A stretch of 49,395 nucleotides of DNA from an uncultured Bacilli bacterium (GCA_944358855.1 CALVSC010000002.1:1-49395); one strand, 5' to 3'. Positions 25,924 through 46,633 are shown, counted from the first letter of the stretch. The notes: generated by a model from the sequence alone, not told the origin. Made by a program: numbers and translations.

Positions 25924-27447
25924 TTACATTTCTTCTTCTCTTGTATATACTTTTACTTTTTCATTGTTTTTCACTAATAATTCTTCTTGTTCTTTTCGTC
26001 TTCTTTTTAATTCTTCTTCTTTTTCCTGTAATTCACTCAACAGTTTTTCTAGATTAGCATATAACTCTTGATATTCTTTAGACCCTTTTATTTCATCACT
26101 AAATTTCTTATCTAAATCTCTCATCATTTCTTCTAGTTTCTTGGCAGATTTACTTACTAGATTTAAAGCATTGTCTATTTGATCTATTCCACTTTCTATT
26201 TGACTACTATAGTCTGTTATAGAAACTGTTTTATATTTTTTCTTTTTTAGTTTAGGGTTTAAGAGATTTTTCATCAATAGTATATAAGCTGCCGTGGCAG
26301 TAGCAACTGCTTTTGCACTACGATTACCTGGTATTAACATTGGTATTGATAGTAAGGCAAGTAGTTTTTTACTTTGTTTATTTAAAAATTCTACTTGATA
26401 AGTAACTTGTTCTGTTACTGTTATAGAATTATTTATCTTTTCTTCCAGGTCTTTTTCTAAGTAGTCCCCTTCATATTGCAGCATTAGTAACTCATTATTA
26501 AAGTTTTCAAAATTATAGTATTCTTCTTGTAGTAGTTGAAATTCTTCTTCGTTCAGTTCTAGTTCTTCTTTTTCTTCTTTTACTTTACCACTTAGTTTTT
26601 GAGTCTTTAGTTTAGCTTCTTCAATAGCACTTGATAGCATTATATATAGTTTTGAATCATTTATTTCCTCTACCTCTTCTTTTCCTTTGAATCTTTCTAT
26701 ATAACTATCTATTAGTGCTGTTATTTCTTGTTCTATATCTTCGTTATCTAGTTGCGTTTTTAGTTTTTGTTTTAGAATTTCTAGATGTTTAATAATTTCT
26801 GTTAATTGACTTAATATTTCTTCTGCTTCTTTTTTGTCTTTTATATTTTGTTCTTTCTTTTCTAAAATCGTGTATTCATATACAATATTTTTTAGTTCTT
26901 GTTTTATTTCTTTTAAGTTATTTTCATATCTTTCTACTATTTTTTGATCTTCTAATTTTTTTATTTTATCTTCATTTATCGTTGGTATAGATATTTGGTT
27001 TTCATTTTCTTCTTTTACTTCAATATGAACAGGTTGAGTAATGGTTACTTCTTTTTGATTCATTTCTTTGTTTTCTATTACATCCGTTTTTTTTCTTTCT
27101 GGGTCTTCTTTTAGAGGGTTTATTATTTCGTCTAGTTCTAGTTTACCAGCTTCATGTAATTCTTCTTTTTGTAAAGCTTTTGCTTCATCTCTTTCTGTTT
27201 CGTACTCTTTTGGTTGACTTATTAGTGTTTCAAATGTATTTCCAATAATGGAAATTGGTACTGCTATAAAAAAGTTTTTTATTGTTTGTTGTTTTACTTC
27301 TTTTTCTAGTTTACGAAGTTTTGCTTGCCTTTTTTTTCTTAAATTTTCTTGTAGTTTTCGTTTTTGCTTTTTTGTAATTCTTATTGTTCGAAGTCGGTCA
27401 TTATGACCTCCTTTTGTACCTATTGTCTCGTTCATATTGTTCACCAT
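25924..27447 (-). CDS. Hypothetical coiled-coil membrane protein (2 TMs) between the PBP gene and mraY
   Basis: A basic N-terminus and a TM, then about 280 aa of K/E-rich coiled coil, a second TM and a further coiled-coil tail. The start may instead be ATG 27435. Confidence 0.55.
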   Translation of the reverse strand: MVNNMNETIGTKGGHNDRLRTIRITKKQKRKLQENLRKKRQAKLRKLEKEVKQQTIKNFFIAVPISIIGNTFETLISQPKEYETERDEAKALQKEELHEAGKLELDEIINPLKEDPERKKTDVIENKEMNQKEVTITQPVHIEVKEENENQISIPTINEDKIKKLEDQKIVERYENNLKEIKQELKNIVYEYTILEKKEQNIKDKKEAEEILSQLTEIIKHLEILKQKLKTQLDNEDIEQEITALIDSYIERFKGKEEVEEINDSKLYIMLSSAIEEAKLKTQKLSGKVKEEKEELELNEEEFQLLQEEYYNFENFNNELLMLQYEGDYLEKDLEEKINNSITVTEQVTYQVEFLNKQSKKLLALLSIPMLIPGNRSAKAVATATAAYILLMKNLLNPKLKKKKYKTVSITDYSSQIESGIDQIDNALNLVSKSAKKLEEMMRDLDKKFSDEIKGSKEYQELYANLEKLLSELQEKEEELKRRRKEQEELLVKNNEKVKVYTREEEM

Positions 27448-27515: not shown

Positions 27516-28190
27516 CTATTCTAGTAATAATCGTATAGTTCCACCTTCTTCTAAGCGTTCCCCACTTGGTGGTGACTGAGATATTACTTTATTTCCAGTT
27601 CCTGTATATTCAATCGTAAAGTCTTTTAATTTTTTCTTTGCTTCTTCTACTGTTTTTCCTACTACGTTTGGTATTTTATGGGTAGGTATATCACTCCATT
27701 CTAAGTCTTTTTCCAGACCATTATCCTGTTTTTCTATTTTTAGGGCATCAATAATATCTAAGAGGATACGTCTTGCGATAGGAGTTGTCGTATAACTTGA
27801 AAGAAGAGCTGTATTTTTAGGATTATCGATTGCTAAATAGAGTACTGCTTTCGGATCATTAGAGGGTACGATGGCCATAAATGACATGATATAGTTTCCA
27901 ACCATATACGTACCATCTTTTACTTTTTGTGCAGTTCCCGTTTTGCCTCCTATACGATATCCCTCGATATAAGCACTTTTTCCTCCTCCTTTTGCGACAA
28001 CACTTTCTAAAGCTTTTTTCATTATTTCAGATGTTTTTTTACTAATTACTTTTCCTACTTTTTCCTTCCTATATTGTTTTATAATAGTACCCGTTTCTTT
28101 TTCCGAAATGTTAGATACTATAAATGGAGTATATAATGTCCCTCCATTAACAACTGCTGAAACTGCCCTTACTTGTTGTAATGTCCTCTT
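27516..28190 (-). pseudogene. 3' segment of a split class B penicillin-binding protein gene (transpeptidase C-terminal part with KTGT, plus one PASTA domain)
   Basis: The stop-to-stop frame reads ...QQVRAVSAVVNGGTLYTPFIV...GGKTGTAQ...PASTA. There is no credible start or SD of its own. It continues exactly where the 38920..40176 segment breaks off. Confidence 0.9.
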
Positions 28191-29814
28191 CTAAATGATA
28201 CTCTTTTCCTAAATTATTACTGGAGGCTGTTACTGTCGTTCCAGTTTTAAAAATAATATTTAATCTTACTTCTTTTTCCTTTTTTTCACTTTTATTAACG
28301 ATTATTTTTTCTACCAAAGAATTAACTATGTTATTTAAGCAAGCTTTATCATCAATAGAATGTTTTAAACCTTCTTCTATATTCTTTATTTCTTTTTTAA
28401 TAAAATATTTATCATACTTAGTCATTTTTAAGTAATTAATTTGTGTTAAATATTTATTTAATTCTATATTTAATTCATCTATTTGTCTTTTATAATCAAT
28501 GTTTTCTAAATAACCATCTAATACGAGTTCTAATAACTTGTTCTTTTTCGTTTTTATAACAATACATTTTTCATCTAATTTTTTTATTTCTTCGATACTG
28601 GTTTTCGATAACAAATAATTTTTACATTCGTTAATTAAACCTTTAAATATTTTTTTGTTATTAGAATAAATTGTAGATATGATGTTTTTAAATAATTTAT
28701 CTAATTCTTGTTCTACCACTCTACTATTTGTACAGCCTTTCAAACTTTCTTTGCGATATATTTGACATTCCCAGACAGGATTGTTTTTTCTTTTACCAGC
28801 ACTATTTCTATGATAAGTAACGTTATGTATACCACAATATATTTTTCCAGAATAAGTATATCGATTATGAAATATTGTTTTATCTTCAATTTTATTTAGA
28901 TAGCTTTTTCTTCTTCTTTGTAACTTGATATTGGCTTTTTCCCATAACTTTTCTGATACTATGGGTGGAACTTTATCATAATCTTTATATAGAGTCCAGT
29001 TTTCTTTCGTTAGTTTCTTTTTTCTTTTTGTTTTATAATCTATAACTTCTGTCTTATGACCACAATAGTATCCCTTATATTTGGGGTTTTCTATTATTCC
29101 TGAAATAATTGTTGTATCTAATCTTTTTCCGGTTTTTGTTTTATAATTTAAGTCATATAAATATTTAGATATTTTAGATAACCCATCATTTGTATTAGCG
29201 TATCGATCGAAAATTATTTTAATCATTTTCGCTTGATTTTTATCAATTATCAGTTTGCCCTTATCTTTTATATAACCATAAATATTAGATGAACCTAAAA
29301 CAACGCCATTATTAATACTTCTTTTCATACCAAAGGATACTCTTTCTGATAGTTTTCTTACTTCATCTTGAGCAATCGAAGACATTATGGTAAGTCGAAG
29401 CTCTGAGTCAGGTAAAATAGTATTTATATTATCATTTAAAAAATATACTCCTACTCCATTTTGTAGTAATTTTTCTGTATATTTGATACTATCTAGTGTA
29501 CTTCTTGAAAATCTTGATATTTCTTTTGTTAATATTAAATCAAATTTATGGTTTTTAGCATCTTCCATCATTTTTAAAAACTCTTCTCTTTTTTTTACTG
29601 TTGTTCCACTGATTCCTTCATCAATATAAGCCCCTTCGAAATGCCAGTGAGGTATTTTGCTTATGTAATCATTAAAAAAAGAAATTTGATGTGATAAGGA
29701 ATGTAATTGTTCTTCTTTCTCGGTTGATACACGAGCGTAAAAACATACTCTTAAATCTAATTCTTGAAGAGACTTTCCTTGTATAATGTGTTTCCTAACT
29801 GTATATAAATCCAT
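28147..29814 (-). CDS. Large serine recombinase (integrase/excisionase of the intervening element)
   Basis: Resolvase catalytic domain (YARVSTEKEEQ, SRFSRS), recombinase domain, Cys-rich zinc ribbon (CGIHNVTYH...WECQ...C) and coiled coil. The last 11 codons run through the att core into host DNA. Confidence 0.9.
   Translation of the reverse strand: MDLYTVRKHIIQGKSLQELDLRVCFYARVSTEKEEQLHSLSHQISFFNDYISKIPHWHFEGAYIDEGISGTTVKKREEFLKMMEDAKNHKFDLILTKEISRFSRSTLDSIKYTEKLLQNGVGVYFLNDNINTILPDSELRLTIMSSIAQDEVRKLSERVSFGMKRSINNGVVLGSSNIYGYIKDKGKLIIDKNQAKMIKIIFDRYANTNDGLSKISKYLYDLNYKTKTGKRLDTTIISGIIENPKYKGYYCGHKTEVIDYKTKRKKKLTKENWTLYKDYDKVPPIVSEKLWEKANIKLQRRRKSYLNKIEDKTIFHNRYTYSGKIYCGIHNVTYHRNSAGKRKNNPVWECQIYRKESLKGCTNSRVVEQELDKLFKNIISTIYSNNKKIFKGLINECKNYLLSKTSIEEIKKLDEKCIVIKTKKNKLLELVLDGYLENIDYKRQIDELNIELNKYLTQINYLKMTKYDKYFIKKEIKNIEEGLKHSIDDKACLNNIVNSLVEKIIVNKSEKKEKEVRLNIIFKTGTTVTASSNNLGKEYHLEEDITTSKGSFSSC
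28171..28180. repeat. att core copy (attL/attR), ACTTGTTGTA
   Basis: Identical 10-mer at 38927-38936 in the same orientation. Confidence 0.85.
28192..28205. repeat. Element-end inverted arm, TAAATGATACTCTT (P' arm of the putative attP)
   Basis: Its reverse complement AAGAGTATCATTTA matches 38906-38919 (AAGGGTATCATTTA) at 13 of 14 positions. Confidence 0.75.
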
Positions 29815-29830
29815 CCTCTATTCTCCTTAC

Positions 29831-29953
29831 TTAAATTATTTTATTCATAACAAAGTTATACATATCTTTCGTTATTATATTATTTTGTTTTAAATATGTA
29901 AGCAAGGTCATTTTTATTTCTTTTTCTATCGATTTATTCATCATATTTTTCAA
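29831..29953 (-). CDS. Small 40-aa ORF immediately upstream of the recombinase gene (possible accessory or directionality factor)
   Basis: TTG start 6 nt after AAAGGAG. The product is (M)KNMMNKSIEKEIKMTLLTYLKQNNIITKDMYNFVMNKII. It lies 16 nt from the recombinase start. No family recognised. Confidence 0.3.
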   Translation of the reverse strand: MKNMMNKSIEKEIKMTLLTYLKQNNIITKDMYNFVMNKII

Positions 29954-30010
29954 ATATCTACTCCTTTCTAATCTCATAAAAATTATATGAAGATATGGAA
30001 AATTTATGGC

Positions 30011-30035
30011 AAAAAAAAACAACAAAATGTTGTTT
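30011..30035 (-). terminator. Intrinsic terminator after ackA
   Basis: AAACAAC-AAAAT-GTTGTTT followed by T9 on the minus strand. Confidence 0.6.
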
Positions 30036-31287
30036 AACTTATTTTTTTTAATTGTGGTGCAGTTTGATTTTGCTTTAATTGTTCACTTATTTCATAAGTA
30101 TCTTTTAAAATCATATACTCTTCGTTTGTTGGCATTACCATAACTCTTATTTTGGAGTCGCTAGTTGATATTTCACCACTATTTTGTTCTTTAAAGCCGG
30201 CAATGGTATCATTTGCTTCTTCATCTAAAGAAATAGACATGACATCTTTTATTTCATTGATGATACCTGCTCTTAAAGACATCGCGTTTTCTCCAATACC
30301 AGCAGTAAATACTATAGCATCTACCTTACCATGTAATTGGAAATAATATTGAGCGATGTATTTAACAATAGAGTCTTTTAACATATCAATTGCAAGTTGG
30401 GCTTTTTCATCTCCCTCATTTGCAAGTTGTTCTACATCTCTAAAATCGTTTTTATTCGCAATACCTAATAATCCACTTTGCTTATTTAAAGCAGAAGTTA
30501 CCTCTTCTACGCTCATATTTCTTTCTTTACAAATATATTCAATAATTGAACTGTCAATGTTACCACTTCTAGTCCCCATAATTAGTCCATCTAATGGAGT
30601 TAATCCCATGGTTGTGTTGTAACATAATCCATCTTTAATGCAAGAAACACTTGCACCTGAACCGATATGACAAATAATTAAATTAACATCATCTTTACCT
30701 AAATACTTTTGCATTTGTTCTGTAATATATTTATGACTTGTTCCATGAAAGCCATATTTTCTAACACCGTTTTCTTCATACCAACTATATGGTACAGCAT
30801 ACATATAATTTTCTTTTGGCATTGTTTGATGAAATGCTGTATCAAAAACAGCAACTTGTGGAACTCCTGGTAATAAAGCTTGCAAACTTTCAATACCAGC
30901 AATTTCACCGGGATGATGCAATGGTCCAAGCTTTGTTAATGACTTAATATTTTCCAATACTTCATCATCGATTAAAACAGAAGTTGAATATATTTCACCA
31001 CCATGTAAAACACGATGACCAACACCTTTAATGTCTGTTATATCGCCTATAAAGTTATTTTCAAGCAATTCATCTAGCATTGTTGCAACTGCTTGAGAAT
31101 GATTAGATATTGCTTTTCTTTTTTCTTGTTTTTCTTCGCCAAACTTTAAAGTATAGAAACTATCATCTTTACCTATTTTTTCCACATAACCATTTACAAT
31201 TACTTTTGCTTCTGGCATTTCATATAATGTGAATTTTAAAGATGAACTTCCTGCATTAACAATTAAAAATTTTTCAGCCTCAGCCAT
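30034..31287 (-). CDS. ackA: Acetate kinase
   Basis: Full-length canonical AckA: VNAGSSSLKF, GHRVLHGG, FDTAFHQTMP, YGFHGTSH, GTRSGNID, TAGIGEN. ATG at 31287 after GGAGGTG. It has its own TTGTCT-17-TAAAAT promoter. Confidence 0.93.
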   Translation of the reverse strand: MAEAEKFLIVNAGSSSLKFTLYEMPEAKVIVNGYVEKIGKDDSFYTLKFGEEKQEKRKAISNHSQAVATMLDELLENNFIGDITDIKGVGHRVLHGGEIYSTSVLIDDEVLENIKSLTKLGPLHHPGEIAGIESLQALLPGVPQVAVFDTAFHQTMPKENYMYAVPYSWYEENGVRKYGFHGTSHKYITEQMQKYLGKDDVNLIICHIGSGASVSCIKDGLCYNTTMGLTPLDGLIMGTRSGNIDSSIIEYICKERNMSVEEVTSALNKQSGLLGIANKNDFRDVEQLANEGDEKAQLAIDMLKDSIVKYIAQYYFQLHGKVDAIVFTAGIGENAMSLRAGIINEIKDVMSISLDEEANDTIAGFKEQNSGEISTSDSKIRVMVMPTNEEYMILKDTYEISEQLKQNQTAPQLKKIS

Positions 31288-31387
31288 AGTTTTCACCTCC
31301 TATAAAAACCTTTTATATTTTACCATTTTTTGAGCAAAAAGACAAATATTACTCACTTTGAACATTGATTTTAACTAGAAAAGCAAC

Positions 31388-33646
31388 CTAATTTTTGGTT
31401 GCTTTTAATAAAGTTTTGGGTCTTGTTTTTGGTTGTTGATGAGTGGTTTGCGGAAGGTCTTCTGCTTGTTCTTCCCATCTTTTATATTCTTCTGTTAATG
31501 CTCTTCTCATTTCTAAATAAGTAGTAGAATTTAATATATTATTATCGTATAAGTCTCTTAGTTGCCCTAAAGTTGAAGTTTTTTCTTCTTGAAGTGTTTT
31601 TCTATCTTTCATTATTACTCTTGGTATTTTTTGATCAGGATGATCAAATCTAAAGCCTGCTGTTGGAGTTATATTTACATTTAATAGTTCTTGGGCTCTT
31701 CTTAGTGTTTCTTTATGTCTTTGTTCCTCGTCTATTTCTTTGCTTATTCCATTGTAAGGTCTTAGTGTCATTCTTTCGTAAGGTTCTGTTATAGATGGTT
31801 TTCTCTCTATTACAGATTTCATTTCATTATATAGCCCTTTACCATTGGTATCTAATAATACAACAGGAGTTGATTCATAGGCCATTGGAAATTCATCTCC
31901 ACAAAAAGTAGAGACTTTAATTTGTCCTTGATCAAAAGAAATAATAAACCTAGTATCTCTTTTCATTAGTTCTAGATACATATCATCCTTTTCTTCTTCT
32001 GAAAGTGATACAAATTGACTTTTAGCATAGTCAAATAAAACTTGATTTTCTAATAATAATCCGGATAGAATTTCCTCCTCGGTAGTGTCTATTGTTTCTA
32101 AATATGCTCTTATAAGGTTTTCTTTTTGATCTTTTGATAAAGTAGTACGTAAATGGTCTTTCATTGGTGTTATTATTTTATGTTCTAGAGTTTTTACTGT
32201 ATTCATACTATAGATTGTTCCTGATAGTTCTCTATTTTGTGGTTCAGCAAATATTATTGCTTTTTTAGGATCAGAGTGTGTAAGTCCTAAATATTTATAA
32301 CTTGGAACATGTTCTCTCGTTCCTAGCTTTATACATGGTGTTAGTATCTCTATATGGTCTTTATATGTTGCGATGTATACAGCCTTACTATTTTCAACAG
32401 GTAATATAAATCTTTCTAATTTAATTAACCCATCTCTATCCTTCACCTTCGCAACTGCATGTATATCTCCTTGTATACATGATACAAAAATACTTTCTAA
32501 CTCTGCTTGCTGTTGTTGGAGTTTGTTTTTGTATGAAGAAAATTTTAAACTATTCATATCTAACTCTATTTTCTCTCCAGCTACCTCTACTATGTACTTT
32601 CCTGTCGAAGGATACTCTGTTACTGTTTTTTCTACATTTGATTTATCATATATCTTTCCATTTCTGTCTATAAAAAATTTATGACCACATAACTCAAATT
32701 CGTAGATTTCATTATCTTTTACTTCTTTTTCTAATTCTAAAGCATCTCTAAATTCTTTTAGTTTTTCTTTTAATTTTTCTATTATATCTTTATTATATAT
32801 ACCTAGTTTTCTAATATAGGATTCGTCTAACTCATTGAAAAACTTATCCATATACTCATCATCTGGTGCTGGTCGTTCTAATAATAATTCTACTATATTT
32901 TTATATTCCCAAAATAATAATTTTCCTATCGTGCTTGTTTTATCAGTTATTAAATCTCGCTGTGCAGCAATATAGTCTTTATCTTTTATTGCCTCAGCAA
33001 ATGGATAAGGGCTATTCCGGGGATTTTCGTGATATCTTTCGGCATCCTTCATAAATTTTTTCCAGAGGCTTGATGGAGAATTACTAAAATCTATTCCTCC
33101 TTTTAAAAACTTACTATAACTTTCTTTATCACCTTTTAATAATCTAGCAAATCTTGCCATACTAGTTTGAGGCTTATAAACTGCACTATTATCTTCTTGC
33201 ATGATTGCTTCTGTTAACATCTGCGTTAGTGCCTCATTCATAAACGCTGTTTTTAGGGCTTCTTTATCTGTTTGCAGATCATAAAAAGCACCTGCCACTA
33301 CCAGAAAATGAATAAATTCATGACATAGTACACCATCTAATGTTTCGGGATCATCTAAAATGCTTTCATTAATGTAAATTCTTCTTTGTAGCATACTAAA
33401 TAAACCGTTGGCTTTCCGTTGGCTTAACTCTTTACTTACAACAATTTTATATTTTCCTGTTCCTTCTTTTAGCAAAAGATCCTGAAGAAACTTTCTATAA
33501 TTTCTTTCCTTGGTATATCCTCTATCATTAAAAAACTTTTGGATTTTTCTCATTACCCTACGAAATGAATCTATTAGTCTTGGATCTATCTCTATCTTAT
33601 CCAGATTACCTTTCGATAATAAATCAACAAAACTTCTATCTTCCAT
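31388..33646 (-). CDS. 752-aa protein with an N-terminal zincin (HExxH) metallopeptidase-like domain, as in polyvalent proteins of mobile elements
   Basis: CHEFIHFLV followed about 30 residues later by MNEALTQMLTE (HExxH plus a downstream Glu). The remaining roughly 600 aa are unrecognised. Confidence 0.55.
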   Translation of the reverse strand: MEDRSFVDLLSKGNLDKIEIDPRLIDSFRRVMRKIQKFFNDRGYTKERNYRKFLQDLLLKEGTGKYKIVVSKELSQRKANGLFSMLQRRIYINESILDDPETLDGVLCHEFIHFLVVAGAFYDLQTDKEALKTAFMNEALTQMLTEAIMQEDNSAVYKPQTSMARFARLLKGDKESYSKFLKGGIDFSNSPSSLWKKFMKDAERYHENPRNSPYPFAEAIKDKDYIAAQRDLITDKTSTIGKLLFWEYKNIVELLLERPAPDDEYMDKFFNELDESYIRKLGIYNKDIIEKLKEKLKEFRDALELEKEVKDNEIYEFELCGHKFFIDRNGKIYDKSNVEKTVTEYPSTGKYIVEVAGEKIELDMNSLKFSSYKNKLQQQQAELESIFVSCIQGDIHAVAKVKDRDGLIKLERFILPVENSKAVYIATYKDHIEILTPCIKLGTREHVPSYKYLGLTHSDPKKAIIFAEPQNRELSGTIYSMNTVKTLEHKIITPMKDHLRTTLSKDQKENLIRAYLETIDTTEEEILSGLLLENQVLFDYAKSQFVSLSEEEKDDMYLELMKRDTRFIISFDQGQIKVSTFCGDEFPMAYESTPVVLLDTNGKGLYNEMKSVIERKPSITEPYERMTLRPYNGISKEIDEEQRHKETLRRAQELLNVNITPTAGFRFDHPDQKIPRVIMKDRKTLQEEKTSTLGQLRDLYDNNILNSTTYLEMRRALTEEYKRWEEQAEDLPQTTHQQPKTRPKTLLKATKN

Positions 33647-33736
33647 TTTATCACTCCCTTATATTGTTTTGTTAATAAAAGATTCGCGCTTATTATACCA
33701 TAAAATGCTACATTTTTCTACTGCATATTTTTTCAT

Positions 33737-33760
33737 AAAAAAAGAGGAGATGTCTCCTCT
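33737..33760 (-). terminator. Intrinsic terminator after the CnaB-repeat gene
   Basis: AGAGGAG-ATGT-CTCCTCT followed by T7 on the minus strand. Confidence 0.6.
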
Positions 33761-34949
33761 ATTCATGATTACATTTTTTAAATTTATATGCTGTTAGACC
33801 AAGCCCTGTAAGAGAAATTATAAATAATGTGGTCATTATTATAATAGAATCACTTGTATTAGGGTTATTCACTTCTACTTTTTGTTGTTCTTGTGGCGTA
33901 TCTACTAAATCTCCAATATATTTTGCATCTACTACAAATCCTTCTTTATTATCTCCAGTAATTGTAAATTCATAGTCTTCTGTATTTTCTAATCGTAAAC
34001 TATATTGACTTGGTGTTTTTTCTTTCTTATTTTTATATAAGTTGGTAATTACTTCTTCCCAGTCGTCTTCTTTTGTTACAGTGATGGTTTGTTCTTGGGT
34101 ATCAAAGTTATATAAACCAAATTCTAATTTATCTGGTCTTTTCTTTGCTTTGTCATTTTCATCGTCCCAGTTTATTGTTACTTTAGAATCATCGATACGA
34201 TATGGTTCATGTGTTATATAAACATCGATATTTCCTTCTTCATCCACAACTATTTTATAATCATAATCAGGATTAGCATAAAGTGATTTATAAACAAATT
34301 GTACTGGTTTATCTAGAAGTGGATTTCCAAATTCGTCTTTATGATAAGCATCTTCTATATATACTTCTTTTTGACAAGTATTTGCATCTATATAAGTATC
34401 TTCTTCATCTGCACAACTTACTCTAATATATTTACCGTCATCTCCATCTAAAGCAATATCTGTATCCCTATAAAAATCTCTGGCATTTCCATCGTCCCAG
34501 TGTTCTGTATATGTGATAGTTTTAAATGGTAATATATAAAAATCTACTGTTAAAGTTCTATTTTCTCTTGTAATATAATCTTTTGTTCCTAAAGGATATG
34601 AATAATGTGGAAATCTAGCATTTTCCGTATAGTATATTTGGGCTCCATCTTCGTGATCCATATATACAATTCTCTCTATAGACCATATTGTTGTTTCATC
34701 ATCTACTCTTCTAACATCTACTTCATCTTTTTTAAATGTATAATTGTATTCTTCTTTTAAATTTACATTATCCATGAATTGTAATGTTATTTCATCTGGT
34801 CTGTAACCTAATTTGTTATCATAGTCGTGCCAAGCAATTTCAAATGTTACAGGTACAAAAGTATCGTCGATTAAAGGTGCGGCAGATACATTTGTTGTTA
34901 AACAAAAAAACGTTCCTACTAATAATAATAAAGATAATATTTTTTTCAT
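33759..34949 (-). CDS. Secreted surface protein with three CnaB-like repeats and a C-terminal sortase-type sorting signal variant (NPNTSD)
   Basis: Signal peptide MKKILSLLLLVGTFFCLTTNVSA. There are three W(H/D)D..N....RPD-type repeats. The C-terminus is NPNTSD plus a hydrophobic helix plus KFKK. Confidence 0.7.
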   Translation of the reverse strand: MKKILSLLLLVGTFFCLTTNVSAAPLIDDTFVPVTFEIAWHDYDNKLGYRPDEITLQFMDNVNLKEEYNYTFKKDEVDVRRVDDETTIWSIERIVYMDHEDGAQIYYTENARFPHYSYPLGTKDYITRENRTLTVDFYILPFKTITYTEHWDDGNARDFYRDTDIALDGDDGKYIRVSCADEEDTYIDANTCQKEVYIEDAYHKDEFGNPLLDKPVQFVYKSLYANPDYDYKIVVDEEGNIDVYITHEPYRIDDSKVTINWDDENDKAKKRPDKLEFGLYNFDTQEQTITVTKEDDWEEVITNLYKNKKEKTPSQYSLRLENTEDYEFTITGDNKEGFVVDAKYIGDLVDTPQEQQKVEVNNPNTSDSIIIMTTLFIISLTGLGLTAYKFKKCNHE

Positions 34950-35040
34950 ATTTTTCTTCCCAATATTATATATTCTCTTGTTTATAATGTATCATTATAT
35001 TAAATAAATGTAAATATTTTTTATTTTTTTATGATTCTTT

Positions 35041-35226
35041 CTACATAATTTTATACTTGTCTTTATAATCTTTATATTTTATTTTTAGAGCATCTACTGG
35101 TTTTAAGTTTTTAAATGATTTGAATTGCAGTGAGCCTATTGGTTCATTTACAAAACTACCATCATTTACAAAAATATAAATGTAACCTTCTATATCATCA
35201 TCAACACAAACATTTTCCATTGTCAT
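35041..35226 (-). CDS. Hypothetical 61-aa ORF
   Basis: ORF only, with no good SD. A 23-codon ORF with a strong SD overlaps its 5' end in another frame. Confidence 0.25.
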   Translation of the reverse strand: MTMENVCVDDDIEGYIYIFVNDGSFVNEPIGSLQFKSFKNLKPVDALKIKYKDYKDKYKIM

Positions 35227-35329
35227 TATTGGATATTTCTCTTGCTGTTCTATAACAAAATTCCATTTTACACCTTCCTATTTTTTTTATTTCATTTGCA
35301 TTTTCTAGTTCATAACTTTAATTAATCTA

Positions 35330-36181
35330 CTAAACTACAGCTGGAATTAAAATTTCATTAATTATTTTAATAGCATTTATGGTATCAACAAATTCTATAT
35401 CTTTTGCATATTCATAAGTTTTTTGATAACTATTCCATAAAGTTTTTAATCTTGAATCATCACTAATTAATCCTATATATTTATTAGCATTTTCAATATA
35501 ATCTAATGTTTCGCGTGATGCAGATGTATTAAAAATTGCTTTTCTTAAAGTATTCTTATTAATGTCATTCCATTTTAAATTAACAAACATATATAAATCA
35601 TAGTAATCTTTCATTCTAGTGTTATCAATATTTCTACTAATAATAGATTCAAACTTTTCGGCAATAATTGTTTCATAATTATAAGTCATAATATCAATAG
35701 TTTCATTATCAAATAAGGTGCTATATTTAAATTCTACTTCTTTATAAGTGATAATATCTCCAGTAGTAATATCTATCATTAAATTAGTTTTTAAGCCATC
35801 AAACGCTGCTTTTAAATTCACTTCAAAGCCTGAATATAATTCTTCTTTTCTGATATCTTTAATATTTTCTATTTCAAGTTTGACATTATCATCTAAATCG
35901 ATACGAATAATTTCATTAATAACTTTAGTAATAGTTTCTCTATCTAGTGGCAATCCTTTTATTGTAGTATCTAAATCCATTGTGCTTCTTAAATTAACAC
36001 CAAAGATAGATGACAATAAAAGTCCACCTTTAATGATAAACTTATCTTTATATTTAGATTTTGATATTCTTCTTAATAAAGCTTCAAACATAAAGTTTTG
36101 AATTATATATTTATTAGGTATGTTAGTTTTCTTTGATAAGTTAGATACTTTTGTTTTTAGACTATCTCTATTTTTGATCAT
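35330..36181 (-). CDS. abiEii: AbiEii/AbiGii-family nucleotidyltransferase toxin (type IV TA / abortive infection)
   Basis: FIIKGGLLLSS...RSTMDLDTT...IDITTGD matches the DUF1814/AbiEii signature. There is a 4-nt ATGA overlap with the upstream antitoxin gene. Confidence 0.88.
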   Translation of the reverse strand: MIKNRDSLKTKVSNLSKKTNIPNKYIIQNFMFEALLRRISKSKYKDKFIIKGGLLLSSIFGVNLRSTMDLDTTIKGLPLDRETITKVINEIIRIDLDDNVKLEIENIKDIRKEELYSGFEVNLKAAFDGLKTNLMIDITTGDIITYKEVEFKYSTLFDNETIDIMTYNYETIIAEKFESIISRNIDNTRMKDYYDLYMFVNLKWNDINKNTLRKAIFNTSASRETLDYIENANKYIGLISDDSRLKTLWNSYQKTYEYAKDIEFVDTINAIKIINEILIPAVV

Positions 36182-36765
36182 CCGAGCACCTCGAAAGTAT
36201 CTCTTACTTTATTATAAATATTCATCTTTTTAGCATATTCATATAGTTTTAAAGTGTTTTTATTTTTACTATAAAAGTATTCTCTTATAGCCTTATTAAA
36301 AATTTCAGCATCTATTTTCTTTTTGTTTTTAATAATATCACAAATAGTTTTATCTAAATCATAAACTCTAATAATATTACCAGAATCTAGTTTATAGTTA
36401 GTTACTCCTAATTCTAATAACTCTCTTTTTGTATAAAATAAATTAACTTTCTTTTCTTTTTGAAGTGAACCATTATAACCACTATTAACTGTAATATCAT
36501 ATATAATAGGAATTCTATTAGAAAAACCGTGCAAATATAAAGCAGTTGTATTTGAATAAATAGCATTTTTACTTTTGCTTTGTAAAATAACAAATTCATC
36601 TATTAGATCATTTTTCTTAATATATACTCCTCGACTTACTCTTTCTATTTTATTTTCTTTAATAAGTTTAGTTAAATAAAATCTTGGGATATTATTATAA
36701 TTAACATTTTTAGTAGTTAGATAACCATTTTTAAATAAATTTAAAATTTTATTTTCATATTCCAT
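36178..36765 (-). CDS. abiEi: AbiEi-family antitoxin / transcriptional autoregulator
   Basis: N-terminal wHTH with the ...ERVSRGVYIKKN motif typical of AbiEi_4. It is paired with AbiEii. Confidence 0.85.
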   Translation of the reverse strand: MEYENKILNLFKNGYLTTKNVNYNNIPRFYLTKLIKENKIERVSRGVYIKKNDLIDEFVILQSKSKNAIYSNTTALYLHGFSNRIPIIYDITVNSGYNGSLQKEKKVNLFYTKRELLELGVTNYKLDSGNIIRVYDLDKTICDIIKNKKKIDAEIFNKAIREYFYSKNKNTLKLYEYAKKMNIYNKVRDTFEVLG

Positions 36766-36783
36766 ATTATTACTTTCCTTTCA

Positions 36784-36819
36784 CGATTAAATTATATCAT
36801 ATTTAATCGCATTTGAAAA
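36784..36819 (-). promoter_or_regulatory. abiE promoter with an embedded inverted-repeat operator
   Basis: Minus strand: TTTTCA (36814-36819), a 17-nt spacer, then the extended -10 TGATATAAT. The 9-bp inverted repeat CGATTAAAT-N8-ATTTAATCG (36784-36809) brackets the -10. Confidence 0.5.
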
Positions 36820-36934
36820 CAATGTTATTATAATTTTTTTATATAAAAAATATCTATATCATCTAATAATAACAAATTAGCATTATAAAAATACTGACAC
36901 ATAAATTGTAATTTATCAATCAAAGTAGTTTTGC

Positions 36935-37900
36935 TTAATACAAAGTGAGTTTATCAATAAAATAACATTTCCCAGTTTCCAAAAAATGTTCCATCGCAAT
37001 AAATGATTTCCCAACTTGATTTAATGTTAATTTTAATCTATAAAAATCAACTTCTCCGGCCCCATTCTTATATGGATAGATTTTAGGTAATGTATCACTA
37101 TATTTCAAAAGTTCTTCACCTTTTTTACCAAGCATAAGTGCTAAGTCTCTATCAGTAAATTCTTGTTTACAACGACAGTCTTCCTCCATATTTTCTTCAT
37201 AGAACTCTTTGTCAATTTCTACATCTGCCCAAGGAAAAAGTTCACGGATTACATGTTCATATTTCTTAATTCCAAATCCAAACATTTCTCTTTGAAATAA
37301 TATTTTTTCTTCTCCTTCTTCTTTTACTTTAAGTATAAATGTTCCTCGCCCAGAAGACTTATTTATCCACTCTTGAACTTCTAAAATACTTTCATCGTGT
37401 TTTAAAGTTTCCAACATCCAATCTTTTGCTATTACTAATGAATTCCATCTTCTTTCATAATCACTTTGTTTATTAGCTAAATCTCGAATTTTTTCACATG
37501 AGTTTTCTAGCGTTTGATTATAAGGAATATTAATTTTCCAACCATTTTTACACTTTATTGCTGTTTGTTTATTAATTACTTCCCATATATACCTATCACT
37601 TGATGGAGAATATAGAACAATAATAACTGAAAGTGAATGATTTATCCAATAATTATAATGTTTGATATCTCCACGAAACACCACATTGTTTCCTTTTTTT
37701 TTACTAAAATACGAATCGCCTGATTTTATTTGAACCGCTATTAATTTTCCAGAAAGATAATTATTGTCTTTTGTTTCTATTATAGCATCTATACCATAAT
37801 CACCTATCGGTTGTTCTCGAAACATAAATCCTAATTCTTCAAATTTTGATGCACATTTATAAACACCTTGTCTTTCAATATTTTCAGTATTATTCATCAT
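36935..37900 (-). CDS. DUF4365-domain protein (predicted PD-(D/E)xK restriction-endonuclease-fold N-domain plus an unknown C-domain)
   Basis: GDYGIDAIIE...GKLIAVQIKSG matches the DUF4365 D..(D/E)xK core. The roughly 200-aa C-terminal region is unrecognised. Confidence 0.75.
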   Translation of the reverse strand: MMNNTENIERQGVYKCASKFEELGFMFREQPIGDYGIDAIIETKDNNYLSGKLIAVQIKSGDSYFSKKKGNNVVFRGDIKHYNYWINHSLSVIIVLYSPSSDRYIWEVINKQTAIKCKNGWKINIPYNQTLENSCEKIRDLANKQSDYERRWNSLVIAKDWMLETLKHDESILEVQEWINKSSGRGTFILKVKEEGEEKILFQREMFGFGIKKYEHVIRELFPWADVEIDKEFYEENMEEDCRCKQEFTDRDLALMLGKKGEELLKYSDTLPKIYPYKNGAGEVDFYRLKLTLNQVGKSFIAMEHFLETGKCYFIDKLTLY

Positions 37901-37963
37901 TTTCTATATTCACCATCCAATCGTATAATTCACAATTTACACTATATAATAATCTTAATAATT

Positions 37964-38581
37964 CTATCTCATATTTTCATCGACATTATAATCATATTTT
38001 GATTTTATTAGTTGTTGAGCGTATCTATCTAAAAATCCACAAAAAGTGCTAAGAAATCCGGAATTAACTATATTTTCTTCGTTAACCCTTTCATATATAT
38101 ATCTCCAATCCTTAAAAACATTAGATATATTAGAAATTTCTTTTTCAATAAATTGTTTATTTGCTTGCTCACCATATTTTTTATAAAAAAATGAAAAAAG
38201 AACTGTTTTTAAATAATCATCTGTATTTTTATACAATTTAAACAAATTATGTAATTCATAATTTTTTAAAGTATTAAAATTAAAATCAATATCTACTAAT
38301 AATAACTTTAAATAGACTTCACAGGCAAATGATTTATTTACAATAAAGGGATATATTCTTGAAATCATTTTATCTCCACGAAATGAGACTTTTGTTCCAC
38401 CCCATTCAATTACAGTATTATCCTTAATATTATTTTGTTGTGCCGGTAAAATTATCATTTCTTCTTCCAATATAGCATTTTTAAATTGCCTTGCTGTTAT
38501 GTACATTTCTACTAATTTTTTCCCTTTAGGATCAAGTTTTTTATATGGGTCATCAATTTTATCTTTGTTATCAGAGTTCAT
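37964..38581 (-). CDS. Hypothetical 205-aa all-alpha protein, possibly HEPN-like, upstream partner of the DUF4365 gene
   Basis: ATG 38581 after a GAGG SD, with a TATAAT upstream. The weak HEPN-like pattern is ELHNLFKL ... FKDWRYIYE. No family confidently recognised. Confidence 0.5.
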   Translation of the reverse strand: MNSDNKDKIDDPYKKLDPKGKKLVEMYITARQFKNAILEEEMIILPAQQNNIKDNTVIEWGGTKVSFRGDKMISRIYPFIVNKSFACEVYLKLLLVDIDFNFNTLKNYELHNLFKLYKNTDDYLKTVLFSFFYKKYGEQANKQFIEKEISNISNVFKDWRYIYERVNEENIVNSGFLSTFCGFLDRYAQQLIKSKYDYNVDENMR

Positions 38582-38905
38582 ACTATTCCTCGCTTTCAAA
38601 TTTCATTTTGTTTCTTTAAACATATTATACTATAAAAAAACTATTCTCGAATATAATGTTGTTTTTGCACGCATTTTTTGGATGAGGGCGGCAGTGAAGT
38701 ATCTGATGTTGTTGCTAAAAACTTTTGAATACATACTGCAAAACTTCCGTTTTTTGATTAGCTTTTGCAGTCAACAAACAAAAAAGATTAAATCATTATA
38801 GACTTAATCGTAATCTGAATACTAAACAATATTAATATAACACCTATATTCATACTCAACATCATATTTTTTGATATATTTATTATTTAATCCTCTTGTT
38901 ATGGT

Positions 38906-38919
38906 AAGGGTATCATTTA
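38906..38919. repeat. Element-end inverted arm, AAGGGTATCATTTA (P arm of the putative attP)
   Basis: Matches the reverse complement of 28192-28205 at 13 of 14 positions. Confidence 0.75.
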
Positions 38920-40176
38920 TTAGACAACTTGTTGTATAGGAGTTACACTTACTCCTTGACCGAAAGCAGTTGTTGCAAGTTCTACATTTCCAACTTGGTC
39001 TAGGTTAAAAATGATTCCTTGTCCCTCACCATTTAAATCAATTCCTGTTTTTGCTCCAAAACCAAATTTATCAATATATTCAAAAAGTTTATCTTTTCCG
39101 AGTAGTTGGCCCATCTTTACGAATCCTGGATTACAAGAGTTTTGTAAGACTTGTAAAAAGGTTTGTTCTCCGTGTCCCCCTGCTTTCCAACATCTTAAAA
39201 TAGAACCGTCTACATTGACACTTCCAGAATCATAAAAGTGATCTTTTTTTAAATCTACTACCCCCTCTTCTACCGCTGCGCTGGTAGTAATTATTTTAAA
39301 TGTAGATCCTGGTTCGTAAGAAGACCAAATTGGTAAGTTTCTACTGAGTATTTCGGTGTTATAGTTTTGATAATTGTTAGGGTCATAATCTGGTCTTGAT
39401 GACATTCCTAGTATTTCTCCTGTATTAGGATCCATAACGATTGCTAGTGCATTATCTGGAGAAAACATATCTACAATGTTATCTAGTTCTCTTTCTAGAG
39501 ACTTTTGGATATTGATATCAATCGTCAACGTAATATTCATTCCATCTTGAGGAGCTTCATAAATATCCGTTAAATTCAATTTATTTCCTTTTGCATCAGA
39601 AAAATACTTTATAGCCCCACTTTTTCCAGTTAAATATTTATCATATTGTAATTCTATTCCTGATAGTCCTTGATTATCTATTCCAACATAACCTAGGACA
39701 TGTGATAATAATTCTTTGTATGGATAATATCTTTTTGACTCTTTCATCAAATAGACTCCTTCTAAATTTAACTTGGCTATTTTATCTGATATTTCATATG
39801 ATAGTCTTCTACCTTCTGGATGCACTCTTTCAATCGAAGTCTCCTTATAAACGTGTTCTTTCATATCTTCATAACTAACATTTAATATATCTGCTAGTAG
39901 ACGTGTCGTTTTCTTTTTGTTTTTTATTTGATTAGGTATTAATACGAGAGAGGTCGTTGTGAGGTTATCTGCTAAAACAACACCATTTCTATCTAATATT
40001 AGTCCTCTATTTGCTTCTACTGGTAAATCTCTACTCCATAAGTTTTTGGCATATTTATTTAATTTATTATAGTCTATCATTTGAACGTAGAAAACGCGTA
40101 ATATAATTAATAATAATAGGAATAATAAAACTAAAAATATTATTTTTATTCTTTTATCTATTTTTCGTAAAAACAT
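38920..40176 (-). pseudogene. 5' segment of the split class B penicillin-binding protein gene (membrane anchor, PBP dimerisation domain, SxxK and SxN motifs)
   Basis: TM anchor IIFLVLLFLLLLIIL, active-site GSTFK and the SCN motif. It ends ...FGQGVSVTPIQQVV*, two codons past the att core. Start at ATG 40176 (SD GAGGTG). Confidence 0.9.
38927..38936. repeat. att core copy, ACTTGTTGTA
   Basis: Identical to 28171-28180. Confidence 0.85.
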
Positions 40177-40248
40177 ATTTTCACCTCTACTATTTTTTAT
40201 GTTTTTACCAATAAAAAAATGTAGACAATTCATGCCTACATTTTCTTT

Positions 40249-41839: not shown

Positions 41840-44800
41840 TTATGCTGCTCTTTGACGAGAGTTTGTATCTGTGTTTTCTCTTTCTCTTTGTGCTTCATCA
41901 AAGTCTATTACCATGTCTCTTAATTCTCTATTTCTATCATCTGCATATGCAGTTTGATTATGATGCATTTCTGAACTTACTCGTGCGGCCAAAGCAGCTG
42001 CTGATGCAGCACCAAATAATGTAGTTGCTAGGTCGCTTGGAAGATTTCCTAAAGCTTGTACTTGTTCAGCTGTAAGTCCTGCTAAAGAATCTCCTAGATT
42101 GGTAACATCAACCATACCTTGGTTCATCTGTTGAATGACATCAGGGTTTTGTACCATATATTGCATTGCTTGTGATAGACCATCAAGTTCAAATTGTGGA
42201 TGTCCTGGAATATATTGTTCTAATACAGGTAATGATTGTGATAGAAGATCATTAAATGATTGTTGCGTTGAATTTGCCAAGTCACTTAGTTGTTGCAATG
42301 CTTGAGCATGTGTCATTGTTCCAGCAGCACATTGATTTGCTATATCAGTAAGCTGCGATTGAGCTTGTTGTTGCATTTGTTCCGCAGCAGCGTGTCCGGC
42401 ATCATCAATTTGTCTATATGTATCTGAACCAATTGCCCAGCCACCATATTGTTCTGCAGAAGAGTCTAGTCCATATCTTTCATTGGTGTTAATTCTTCCG
42501 ATGATATCTTCTTGGGCTTGTGCTTTCATTCCTTCACCGAAGGTTTCGCGATATCCCGCAATTTGTTCTCCCGTTGTATGTGCTTGATCTATTGCTCCTT
42601 GATTAGTTGCATTAGCATTTGCAATTTGATCATTATGAGCATCAACTGTCTGTTGAACATTTGAATGTGTATGCCATGCATTGACAGCACTTACAGTTGC
42701 TCCAACAGTAGCAATTGTTGTTAATAGATTTCTAACAAATGGATCCGGCCTATAATCAAGCATTGTTGAAAGTGGAGTAAAGTTAAACCTGCCAGTGGAA
42801 CGTCTTCCAAAAACACTTCTTCCTTCTTCTGTATTTCTAGCATATTCTAATGCTTTTGCAACAAAGGCAGTTAAAGCTTGTTCATCATTTCCAGTCTGAA
42901 TCGCTCTTAATTCAATATCTGCAAGTATGCCAAGTTTTCGATCTAATTCAAGTGTCTCTTTACTATTTTTTGGCCTTTTTGCAAATCTGATACCTTGTAA
43001 GTTCATTTTACTATTGACTGCATTTAAGTCTTCTTCTTGCCCATGAATACCATCTGATAAGATGGCGTTTGTTCTATTTTCTAGATTACTAAATTCCGCT
43101 ATTAAACCTGTTGTACCTGCCAATGCATCTCTTTTTTGTTTAGTTAATTTTTCTTTTTCGTCGTCTGTTGTGGCATGATCAATAGCATCATCATATGATT
43201 GAGCTGTTTTATAGCGATTAAATATTGATTTATACATTGCTAACATTCTATTACGATTAGCTTCAACCCTTTCCATTCCTTTCTCACGAAGAACTTCCAT
43301 GATTGCATCGTTTACTACTTGAGACTCATTTCTTTGTAATGCTACATTACCACGATATTGTTGGAATAAAACTTCAATATCTCTATCAGATAAATTTCTA
43401 ATTCTTTCTCTTATTTGTTCTCCAACATCGCTTTGACCTTTTATACGTAGATAAATCTTACCTATACCTTTACCTATAGTACTAACAACTCCCTTTATAA
43501 TTCCCGGAACAAATCCAACAATAGCATATAACCATGATCCGTTTCTCAATTCATTTCTAAAACTATCTCTTACACGTATTCTAGACGCCTTTAATGCTTT
43601 TCCTGTTCTATCATCAAAATTAAGTGGATTACCATTTTCATCTTGTTTTATATCAGCTAATATTGTTTCCAATGATCTTACTTTTGTTGGTTGAAATTTT
43701 ACCTTTGGTTCCTTATTTTCTTCCCCTGGTGGAAGTTGTTTAGGTTCCTTATCCTCTTCTTCAGGATTAGTTGGTCCCATATTTGTTGGATCCGTATTTG
43801 CTGGATCCGTATTTGTTGGTTCCATATTGGTTGGATCTGTATTGGTTGGATCCGCGTTTGTTGGTTCCGTATTTGTTGGATCCGTATTTGTTGGATCCGT
43901 GTTTGTTGGATCCGTGTTTGTTGGATCCGTGTTTGTTGGATCCGTATTTGTTGGATCCGTATTTGTTGGATCCGTGTTTGTTGGTTCCGTATTTGTTGGA
44001 TCTGTGTTTGTTGGTTCCGTATTGGTTGGATCCGTATTGGTTGGATCTGTATTGGTTGGATCCGTGTTTGTTGGCGTGTGTCCAGCAGGAAGTCCTAACG
44101 GTTCTCTTCCAGCAGGAAGCCCTAATGGTTCTCTTCCGGCAGGAAGACCAGGACGAGTTTGCGCACCATAGTGTAATTCATAAGAATGGTCATCTGTTTG
44201 TGTGTCTGCTGTTCCTAGATTATTGCGGTTACCAGCTTCATTATAATATCCGACATCTGCCAATCTTCTACCATATTCGTTTATTAAAAAGTCATGATAT
44301 TGTTCTGGTTCTTCTAACACTCCTTGACTTCTTGGTCTTGGAATAAAAGAATTTGGATAATATACGACGTTTCCGTTTTCATCGTGTTCATAAGTTGGGT
44401 CATATCTTTCTTGCTCTCTTGCTCTTCTTACTCTTCTATACATATCATCCATTCTTTGTAAGACCAAAGCATTGTCTTCTCTATTTTCTGTTATGACTCT
44501 TTGTCTTTCCATTCCATATCTATTGGTAAAGTCTTCTAAGCTCATAGAGAATGGATTGAAGTTTTCGTCAAGAATACTTTCTTGGCTTTCACGCATTTGT
44601 AGTAAATCATCATAAGTCATTCCTGGATAATATCCAGCGTTAGCTATTCTTCTTGTGTATTCACCATTTACAAATGCTTCATATTGTTCCGGATCTTCCA
44701 AATATGCTTGCCTTCTTGGCATTGGTACAAATGTATTTTCATAGTATACAACGTTTCCGTTTTCATCGTGTTCATAGGTTGGATCATATCTTTCTTGTGA

Positions 44801-46621: not shown

Positions 46622-46633
46622 CTTTCTCACTCC

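Follow-up and report, generated by a model that had tools for sequence, protein, structure and literature searches.

A serine-recombinase element splits spoVD in an uncultured gut Bacilli bacterium and may be excised during sporulation

Is a penicillin-binding protein (PBP) gene that lies in two pieces broken, or is it put together again when it is needed? The question is raised by a 49,395-nucleotide stretch of DNA from an uncultured Bacilli bacterium (GCA_944358855.1, CALVSC010000002.1:1-49395; hereafter the window), in which a class B PBP gene is found as two minus-strand pieces, 38920..40176 and 27516..28180, with a 10,756-bp element between them that is bounded by ACTTGTTGTA. The reading we favor, with a probability of about 0.6, is that a non-phage element of approximately 10.8 kb, carrying a large serine recombinase (LSR), sits in the sporulation gene spoVD and is excised in the mother cell during sporulation, which would restore the gene. 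SpoVD, a class B PBP specific to sporulation, builds the spore cortex.

The split gene and the recombinase between its pieces

The 5′ piece is open from 38920 to 40233 on the minus strand, and the start codon in orthologues is the ATG at 40176. It encodes STFK (amino acids [aa] 291 to 294) and SCN (aa 347 to 349), and its product ends in ...GQGVSVTPIQQV-V-stop (TPIQQV-V-stop), the last V codon and the stop being supplied by element DNA. The frame of the 3′ piece, 27516..28190, reads ...QQVRAVSAVVNGGTLYTPF... ahead of KTGT and the PASTA domain. Joining the pieces in silico through one of the two repeat copies, which are spaced by 10,756 bp (Table 1), yields 1905 nt in frame, or 634 aa plus a stop. 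A preliminary description of this DNA had reported the split gene with its motifs, gap and direct repeat and an in-frame join of 635 codons; the map of open reading frames (ORFs) and the translations confirmed every coordinate.

In Pfam searches, the joined protein matched PBP_dimer, PASTA and, as one unbroken match over the junction, Transpeptidase (2.5e-81). It is colinear with 47 intact orthologues, and the closest intact alleles, which are 91% identical to it, read ...TPIQQVRAVSAVVNGG... over the junction. As this is also the junction peptide of the join, precise excision would restore an intact ORF. The preliminary description had staked the split on uninterrupted orthologues of this kind and on an assembly that is not chimeric at the junctions. 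Both exact junctions were recovered from at least 12 independent samples and two assembly sources: the exact 555-aa recombinase lies beside the 3′ fragment on 7 contigs, the exact 418-aa 5′ product lies beside the left-end genes of the element on 11 contigs, and the sequence of the attachment site attR is identical in five contigs. Among contig-linked proteins, the 418-aa version of the 5′ fragment is recorded and a 437-aa version is not. Because both junctions recur exactly in independent assemblies, the split is no assembly chimera, and an artefact at these points is effectively refuted.

Sequence comparisons point to SpoVD as the product of the joined gene. The protein has the SxxK, SxN and KTG motifs and one PASTA domain, and it scores 724.6 bits on the NCBIfam SpoVD equivalog TIGR02214 (cutoff, 688 bits), on which the PBP paralogue near spoVD in relatives reaches 352 bits only. 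Its best PDB match is SpoVD (7RCZ, "Stage V sporulation protein D") with 399 bits, versus 244 bits for the next PBP. Outside the window, 12.7 kb upstream of the split gene on the same chromosome, a 719-aa class B PBP that has PASTA comes next after mraZ-rsmH-ftsL, in the canonical place of pbpB. Given the TIGR02214 score, the 7RCZ match and this separate pbpB of the dcw (division and cell wall) cluster, the split gene is by its sequence the chromosome's second class B PBP gene, in the SpoVD position downstream of pbpB. The SpoVD-like identity that had been proposed is thus borne out, whereas the proposal that the gene heads a dcw-type cluster has to be abandoned.

An intact LSR abuts attR, in agreement with the claim of a serine-recombinase element. 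It looks functional, because its domains are complete (Table 1), its catalytic motif (Ser30 in YARVST) is invariant in 7 homologues and its attP can be reconstructed. The recombinase gene lies at the element's edge and its ORF crosses the attR junction, so that its last 8 codons and stop are in spoVD DNA; the same layout was found in all related loci.

To define the attachment sites, 20 related junctions at the same position of spoVD (site C, see below) were compared. The left end of the element always starts with GTCTAATAAATGATAC. The host side of many attL copies has ...ATCCACCTTGT where attB has ...ATTCAACAAGT, and the element side of many attR copies imitates ...ACTCCTATACA. What attL and attR share throughout the compared site-C elements is limited to CA, the bases at codon positions 1 and 2 of Gln415. 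The 10-bp direct repeat of the preliminary description is therefore present but is not itself the crossover; it represents extended attP/attB identity around a predicted CA crossover. Reconstruction from attL and attR gave a site-C attP of the form CATTTAWTAGAC-N7-CA-N7-GTCTAATAAATG, an imperfect inverted repeat around the central dinucleotide. Such arms and a central crossover dinucleotide, by which LSR att sites are recognized, were also found in the attP of a site-B family (GTGTTGCTGTGTCGACACCAAG-CAAT-CTTGGTGTCAATACAGCAACAC), whose 22-nt arms match at 19 of 22 positions. The predicted junctions after excision from the window are attB CCTATACAACAAGTAAGGGCAGTT (...ACTCCTATACAACAAGTAAGGGCAGTTTCAGC...) and attP GAGGACATTACAACAAGTTGTCTAATAAATG (...TTAGAAGAGGACATTACAACAAGTTGTCTAATAAATGATACC...).

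The position of the recombinase gene predicts two forms of the enzyme. In site-C elements the integrated form ends in 8 to 12 host-encoded residues, and the circle form would gain a conserved tail of 31 to 34 aa, CLINDTLTITRG.N.KY.KKYDVE...; for the element in the window, the two predicted isoforms measure 555 and 582 aa. This tail is 68% invariant up to a shared stop codon and 0% after it; its coding signal is moderate, with 4, 10 and 13 variable columns at the three codon positions. A recombinase ORF spanning attP can be read in the window (38822-38926 plus 28147-28180) and in the related loci L050, L053, L054, L060, L062, L076, L091 and L169. From sequence, the two isoforms could serve as a sensor of the integrated or excised state or as a directionality device. 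In temperate mycobacteriophages with integration-dependent truncation, attP lies inside a gene and the integrated and free products differ in their C termini; in those phages the integrase is a tyrosine-type enzyme and the affected gene is that of the repressor, whereas here the LSR gene itself is concerned.

Directly upstream of every recombinase in the family, including those that target sigK and dac genes (see below), is an ORF of 40 to 80 aa. The proteins share the motif ...L.LN..LY....I....Y......L..K, and their similarity to SHOCT_2 is sub-threshold only. Conserved adjacency makes this small ORF the best candidate for a recombination directionality factor (RDF). Typically, the small-ORF/recombinase module lies 3′ of a terminator hairpin and a short spacer with a (C)ATAAAAT-like box. 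CATA boxes are present at 6 of 19 modules, against 9% of background genes (p = 0.0065).

spoVD and other genes as insertion targets

How common is the split? We scanned one genome per species with the joined protein and obtained 75 species representatives with spoVD. The gene is split in 28 of them (~37%); the 47 intact orthologues are 54 to 85% identical to the query. There are three main junction sites, namely after SxxK (site A), at SxN (site B) and in GQGVSVTPIQ (site C), each with its own LSR clade (Table 1). Site B is served by at least three element families, and minor junctions lie at about positions 343 (P0132), 353 (L071) and 411 (L072). In three contigs spoVD is in three pieces with two elements, at sites A and B in L080 and at sites A and C in L076 and L097. 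A single protein cluster at 90% identity contains intact 634-aa alleles as well as truncated ones that are interrupted at site B, B′ or C. The smallest spoVD elements measure 3 to 6 kb (L058, L076, L091). Within this clade, the att sites coincide with catalytic-motif codons only. That they are the most conserved DNA of the gene was considered and rejected, since identity in 30-nt windows is 0.745, 0.84 and 0.83 at sites A, B and C, respectively, versus a gene mean of 0.79. The SPAdes contigs of four site-B loci (L056, L059, L063, L066) end 57 to 70 nt past the junction, approximately one k-mer length, a pattern that could be expected if the element end were shared with another context, i.e., another host or a circle.

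The interrupted alleles do not look like decaying ones. Median ratios of nonsynonymous to synonymous substitution rates (dN/dS) are 0.122 for split-split, 0.137 for intact-split and 0.149 for intact-intact pairs, and the closest split-split pairs have dN/dS values of 0.04 to 0.08 at dS of 0.3 to 0.5. No locus has a stop codon in the first 285 codons, and none of the 29 split loci has a frameshift. As judged from these sequences, split spoVD fragments stay under purifying selection.

The recombinases form one family, with 38 to 45% identity between sites and clades of 64% (site C), 54% (site B) and 50 to 63% (site A) within sites. A metagenome scan with the recombinase alignment added 80 loci. 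All 15 loci that have downstream DNA and a recombinase at least 64% identical to that of the window run straight into spoVD at about codon 412, and the SpoVD C-terminal fragments of their hosts are only 49 to 80% identical; by these alignments, the site specificity of the window-type recombinase is strict.

More distant relatives (about 38 to 49% identity) lie directly upstream of 3′ fragments of sigK, of spoIVA and of D-Ala-D-Ala carboxypeptidase (dac) genes. SigK and SpoIVA are mother-cell proteins in studied spore formers. The spoIVA fragment covers residues 399 to 492 of TIGR02836 (E = 2.6e-47) and was found at L102, L103, L108, L111, L118, L122, L123 and L151, with an ...SIHMIRADIE... junction and recombinases 44 to 49% identical to that of the window. 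The sigK fragment covers residues ~60 to 226 and was found beside recombinases of 38 to 42% identity at L136, L141, L142, L143 and L153, possibly also at L134, L135, L146, L147 and L149; the sigK-adjacent loci carry a related small ORF upstream (MESAQRELVSVLL...). The dac fragments at L109, L116, L125 and L154 have their junction at ...TKIMTA..., an SxxK-like motif, and a second dac site was seen in L165 and L086 (4120-4425). In L086 a second serine recombinase lies 3′ of the dac fragment, so this gene may be multiply split too. Of the targets, sigK, spoIVA, spoVD and a dac gene could thus be named; numerous further fragments downstream of recombinases could not.

Proposed excision during sporulation and the alternatives to it

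Does the host form spores? Its closest genomes are uncultured gut "Bacilli" metagenome-assembled genomes (MAGs), Candidatus Faecimonas among them, a type of host that corresponds to GTDB genus CAG-877, family CAG-611, order RF39 (PMC8035907). Gene content predicts peptidoglycan and spore formation with an atypical gene set in RF39, whose genomes are reduced, with spoVD and several other sporulation genes scored as reduced or absent (PMC10868615). Part of that reported lack of spoVD may be an artefact of how split genes are annotated, given their share of ~37% among species representatives. The window has a spoVE-like SEDS gene, and an SspI equivalog is encoded on the same chromosome, 5.4 kb past the left end of the window (TIGR03092, 60.3 bits; cutoff, 58.35 bits). 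The uncultured host is probably a spore former.

The region upstream of spoVD offers a further clue. A CATA box lies 15 to 45 nt before the start codon in 67 of 69 distinct spoVD upstream regions, against 9% of 873 background genes (p = 3e-58), and TATAAT is depleted (6% versus 26%); the CATA-type box is kept in split loci too. In Bacillus subtilis, CATA-initiated -10 boxes characterize sigmaE and sigmaK promoters. The box fits a mother-cell gene and is no proof of one. A scan for sigma-70 promoters and terminators was uninformative in this DNA of 29% GC (92 sites versus 87.5 expected).

We propose that the element was inserted into the spoVD coding sequence by LSR-mediated site-specific recombination. 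Because a separate pbpB is present in the dcw cluster, spoVD would not be needed in vegetative cells, the split would be tolerated and the element would be inherited vertically. During sporulation, expression of the small-ORF/recombinase module would most likely begin in the mother cell, which undergoes terminal differentiation. Recombination of attL with attR at the central CA dinucleotide would be carried out by the LSR, the small protein serving as its directionality factor. A circle would thereby be released, an intact spoVD of 634 aa would be restored early enough for the cortex to be made, and the forespore would retain the element in its chromosome. We infer excision, its timing and cell specificity and the RDF role of the small ORF from indirect evidence that favors a programme: split alleles evolve under purifying selection, sigK and spoIVA harbor related recombinases, and a CATA-type promoter box is present.

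Several observations weigh against this proposal. The organism is uncultured and its sporulation is predicted only, and DNA of 29% GC does not allow promoters to be assigned to sigmaE or sigmaK. Near the small ORF, the largest subclade (L053-like) lacks the CATA box, and the counts draw on sequences that are not independent of each other. The recombinases are more alike than their hosts are, which implies horizontal spread, yet the element has no transfer genes. The attP junction was absent from metagenome contigs (for which the search pattern fitted window-like and L053-like arms only), viral contigs and all fetched loci, and neither the exact joined SpoVD nor the predicted circle-form recombinase was present among 15 billion public proteins, in which the integrated forms do occur; these searches had low power, as assemblies show the majority genome and contigs and proteins rather than reads were searched. 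Finally, SpoVD of Clostridioides difficile also acts before compartmentation, in asymmetric division (PMC10693644); if such an early role applied here, restoration in the mother cell only would not fit. Unlike C. difficile, this genome has a canonical pbpB.

How do the other explanations fare? An assembly or binning artefact, i.e., a chimeric contig, has next to no credibility. The data are metagenomic, the MAG BRZ_GN__bin17 has intact and split spoVD copies on separate contigs, and some contigs end inside or near elements, but both junctions are exact in the independent assemblies counted above and the junction type is repeated in dozens of species. In that bin, the intact spoVD (L001) is 85% and the site-C split one (L054) 78% identical to the query; the bin probably mixes two related species. 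Dead-end inactivation, with a lineage that has lost or is losing sporulation, a relaxed spoVD as a safe landing pad and an element that is never productively excised, strikes us as improbable. It would agree with the reduced RF39 genomes in which spoVD and other sporulation genes were scored as reduced or absent (PMC10868615) and with the failure to find excision products in contigs, loci or the protein collection. However, dN/dS of the split fragments is 0.04 to 0.12 without stops or frameshifts in 29 split loci, many species have intact, conserved recombinase ORFs and att arms, split loci keep the spoVD promoter box, an intact sspI equivalog lies nearby, and the scored absence of spoVD is itself open to the annotation effect mentioned above.

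We also consider it unlikely, if worth taking seriously, that the element is a reversible island outside any developmental programme, which uses a spoVD motif as attB since the gene is dispensable for growth and which excises stochastically or on another cue. It would then be at most a population-level on/off switch of sporulation, similar to active lysogeny, and would have to re-integrate to persist. The cargo promoters appear to be of vegetative type, defence cargo is typical of islands, the elements are common to distant hosts and so are mobile and integrating, and a full-length recombinase isoform in the circle only would suit an element that re-integrates. In addition, a yabG element of Clostridium botulinum is excised at all time points, heterogeneously (PMC10747680). 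Conversely, the family targets sigK, spoIVA, spoVD and dac, with no forespore or housekeeping gene among the nameable targets, an argument limited by the many downstream fragments without a name; the at least 12 samples yielded neither a circle nor an empty site of this strain; and purifying selection on split alleles equals that on intact ones. Programmed excision in the mother cell is the explanation we favor. A broader version of it, to which we give somewhat less than even odds, is a multi-element programme of RF39 in which one LSR family occupies at least three spoVD sites, sister clades occupy sigK, spoIVA and dac, some genomes re-assemble spoVD from three pieces and the recombinase switches isoforms.

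Cargo, surroundings and relation to known elements

In minus-strand order, the element encodes a 211-aa protein, a DUF4365 protein, AbiEi, AbiEii, a 61-aa ORF, a Cna_B protein, a 752-aa protein, acetate kinase, the small ORF and the 555-aa recombinase (Table 1). The AbiE pair, an abortive-infection or type IV toxin-antitoxin system, is complete, its two ORFs overlapping at 36178-36181. The restriction endonuclease (REase) domain of the DUF4365 protein resembles that of Argonaute-associated REase proteins, which makes this gene a candidate defence gene. Several cargo genes carry TGnTATAAT-type boxes. Element copies vary by sample in the presence of Cna_B and of an insertion sequence (IS) between DUF4365 and AbiEi. 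The IS-like insert, with rve and HTH_38 genes, is found in L169 (13350-14327) and L176 (5334-6311), and the assembly of sample ERZ24773552 splits into two large contigs at the point of this insert.

TABLE 1 Features of the split spoVD locus and insertion sites in SpoVD
Feature	Position	Strand	Description
spoVD upstream region	40177..40248	-	Terminator hairpin, then aaaaaCATAaaaaatag, then ribosome-binding site AGAGGTG
spoVD 5′ fragment	38920..40176	-	418-aa product: membrane anchor, PBP dimer domain, STFK, SCN; exact product on 11 contigs
attL core copy	38927..38936		ACTTGTTGTA on + strand; predicted crossover TG (+)/CA (-) at 38933-38934
Element left end	38822..38926	-	First ~20 nt = attP arm (GTCTAATAAATG...); recombinase frame encodes conserved 34-aa tail (CLINDTLTITRGLNNKYIKKYDVEYEYRCYINIV)
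211-aa protein (called as 205 aa)	37964..38599	-	No family match (Pfam, NCBIfam, PADLOC, PHROGs)
DUF4365 protein, N-terminal REase domain	36935..37900	-	PF14280 3.7e-33; PADLOC Aga_REase 2e-20
AbiEi	36178..36765	-	PADLOC 7.7e-64
AbiEii nucleotidyltransferase	35330..36181	-	PADLOC 2.7e-90
Cna_B-domain surface protein	33759..34949	-	Without counterpart in element variant L081
752-aa protein	31388..33646	-	Weak SprT-like match
Acetate kinase (ackA family)	30034..31296	-	Full length; TIGR00016 503 bits
Small ORF	29831..30025	-	Directly upstream of recombinase; start at 29953 or 29977 likely (~40-48 aa); CATATAAT box upstream
Large serine recombinase, 555 aa	28147..29814	-	Resolvase PF00239, Recombinase PF07508, Zn ribbon PF13408; phrog_95 integrase 5.5e-106
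attR core copy	28171..28180		Predicted crossover at 28177-28178 (+ strand TG)
spoVD 3′ fragment	27516..28170 (open frame 27516..28190)	-	RAVSAVVNGG, KTGT (aa 493-496), one PASTA domain
Site A	Just after STFK (aa ~296)		L069, L076, L079, L080
Site B	Asn codon of SCN (aa 349)		L055-L059, L061, L063-L068, L070, L074, L075
Site C	aa 415		Window, L050-L054, L060, L062, L076

Is the element a prophage? No phage structural, packaging or lysis genes were found in it (PHROGs matched the integrase only; Pfam gave none). A phage origin was rejected, as the closest recombinases in IMG/VR and GenBank phages are 43% and 39% identical, respectively; the best phage record, L178, is a contig rich in GC and unrelated, and L086 is the dac-targeting element. 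Because PHROGs matched only the integrase and the phage collections hold no close recombinase, the gene content supports a non-phage cargo and defence island. The earlier view of the element as such an island rather than a prophage is upheld by the lack of phage structural genes, the complete AbiE pair and the REase-domain protein.

Several neighbours of the locus deserve mention. The split gene is followed on its 3′ side by a 507-aa protein, mraY, a zinc-ribbon protein and an FtsW/SpoVE-type SEDS gene. The 507-aa protein, between spoVD and mraY (25924-27447), has no Pfam or NCBIfam match; in B. subtilis, murE occupies this place. Upstream of spoVD, a repetitive 1596-aa protein (41840-46630) is called as 1540 aa, as 1089 plus 426 aa or, in cut contigs, as 610 to 651 aa, depending on the sample, and has the look of a surface protein that is hypervariable or difficult to assemble. 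Beyond the window (L179, 13636-15961), 5 kb past its left end and after rplU-prp-rpmA and obg, there is, beside sspI, a gene whose 270-aa product matches Hpt weakly and has a receiver domain at its C terminus. In Bacillus, spo0B sits in that obg neighbourhood. Spo0A as the identity of the 270-aa protein was ruled out by NCBIfam.

How does the spoVD element compare with known ones? Intervening elements have been described in the sporulation genes sigK, spsM, spoVFB, spoVR, gerE and yabG (PMC4191935, PMC5595907, PMC10747680, PMC5025042). The preliminary description had not known spoVD as a textbook target, and we found no natural spoVD- or spoIVA-intervening element in the searchable literature, which leaves subscription journals uncovered; the sole match for spoVD plus integrase concerns secondary ICEBs1 sites. 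The skin elements of sigK depend on SpoIVCA in B. subtilis and, in C. difficile, on CD1231 and the RDF CD1234 under sigmaE/SpoIIID control (PMC5025042), and an edge position of spoIVCA in skin has been reported (bioRxiv 10.1101/2022.02.25.481979). As in skin, the coding sequence of a sporulation gene is interrupted, precise excision restores the ORF and the cargo is variable; moreover, recombinases 38 to 42% identical to that of the window sit in sigK in metagenome contigs. In contrast to skin, the target is an enzyme rather than a regulator, one gene has several sites with up to three pieces per contig, the element does not resemble a prophage, the recombinase ORF extends past the att site, and excision is so far a prediction.

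The gin element in gerE of Bacillus cereus ATCC 10987 (PMC5595907) is likewise a small non-viral recombination unit with a few genes, comparable to the minimal spoVD elements of 3 to 6 kb; its target gene and host lineage differ, and the window copy is larger, with defence and metabolic cargo. In SPbeta/spsM (SprA and SprB), vfbin/spoVFB, vrin/spoVR and yin/yabG, an LSR and a small RDF reconstitute a mother-cell gene (PMC4191935, PMC5499854, PMC10747680), for which only an RDF candidate is available here. Those elements, prophages or remnants of them, occupy a single site in each gene and come from cultured Bacillus or Clostridium, whereas the spoVD host belongs to uncultured RF39, with a genome of ~1.5 Mb. 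The elements of heterocyst-forming cyanobacteria, such as those in nifD, fdxN and hupL, also interrupt genes for a terminally differentiated cell, with variants at several positions of one gene, recombinases that cluster by variant and highly variable cargo (PMC4874684); XisF is among the NCBIfam matches of the window recombinase. They differ in phylum and developmental programme, and approximately half of the cyanobacterial recombinases are of the tyrosine type.

The interrupted sporulation gene, the element's own recombinase at its edge and the precise join that restores the ORF support its assignment to the skin-type intervening elements of sporulation genes, of which we infer excision to be a part. 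Its breadth is unusual, with multiple sites and pieces, a high prevalence and sister elements that occupy other sporulation genes. SpoVD, a cortex-synthesis enzyme, and by extension SpoIVA and a carboxypeptidase, join the short list of interrupted sporulation genes, and split spoVD is common (~37% of species representatives) in an abundant, uncultured and genome-reduced lineage of the human and animal gut. Gene-presence surveys can score split genes as absent, so that the sporulation capacity of RF39 may be underestimated. If the host has no other ackA, a core fermentation gene rides on an excisable element. The related serine integrases, with distinct targets of 40 to 50 bp in one gene and a candidate small partner each, form a natural set useful for work on specificity and directionality, and the predicted junction sequences would allow excision, and hence sporulation, of uncultured RF39 to be detected in stool reads. 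If the multi-element reading is true, endospore formers would have a developmental genome rearrangement comparable to that of heterocysts.

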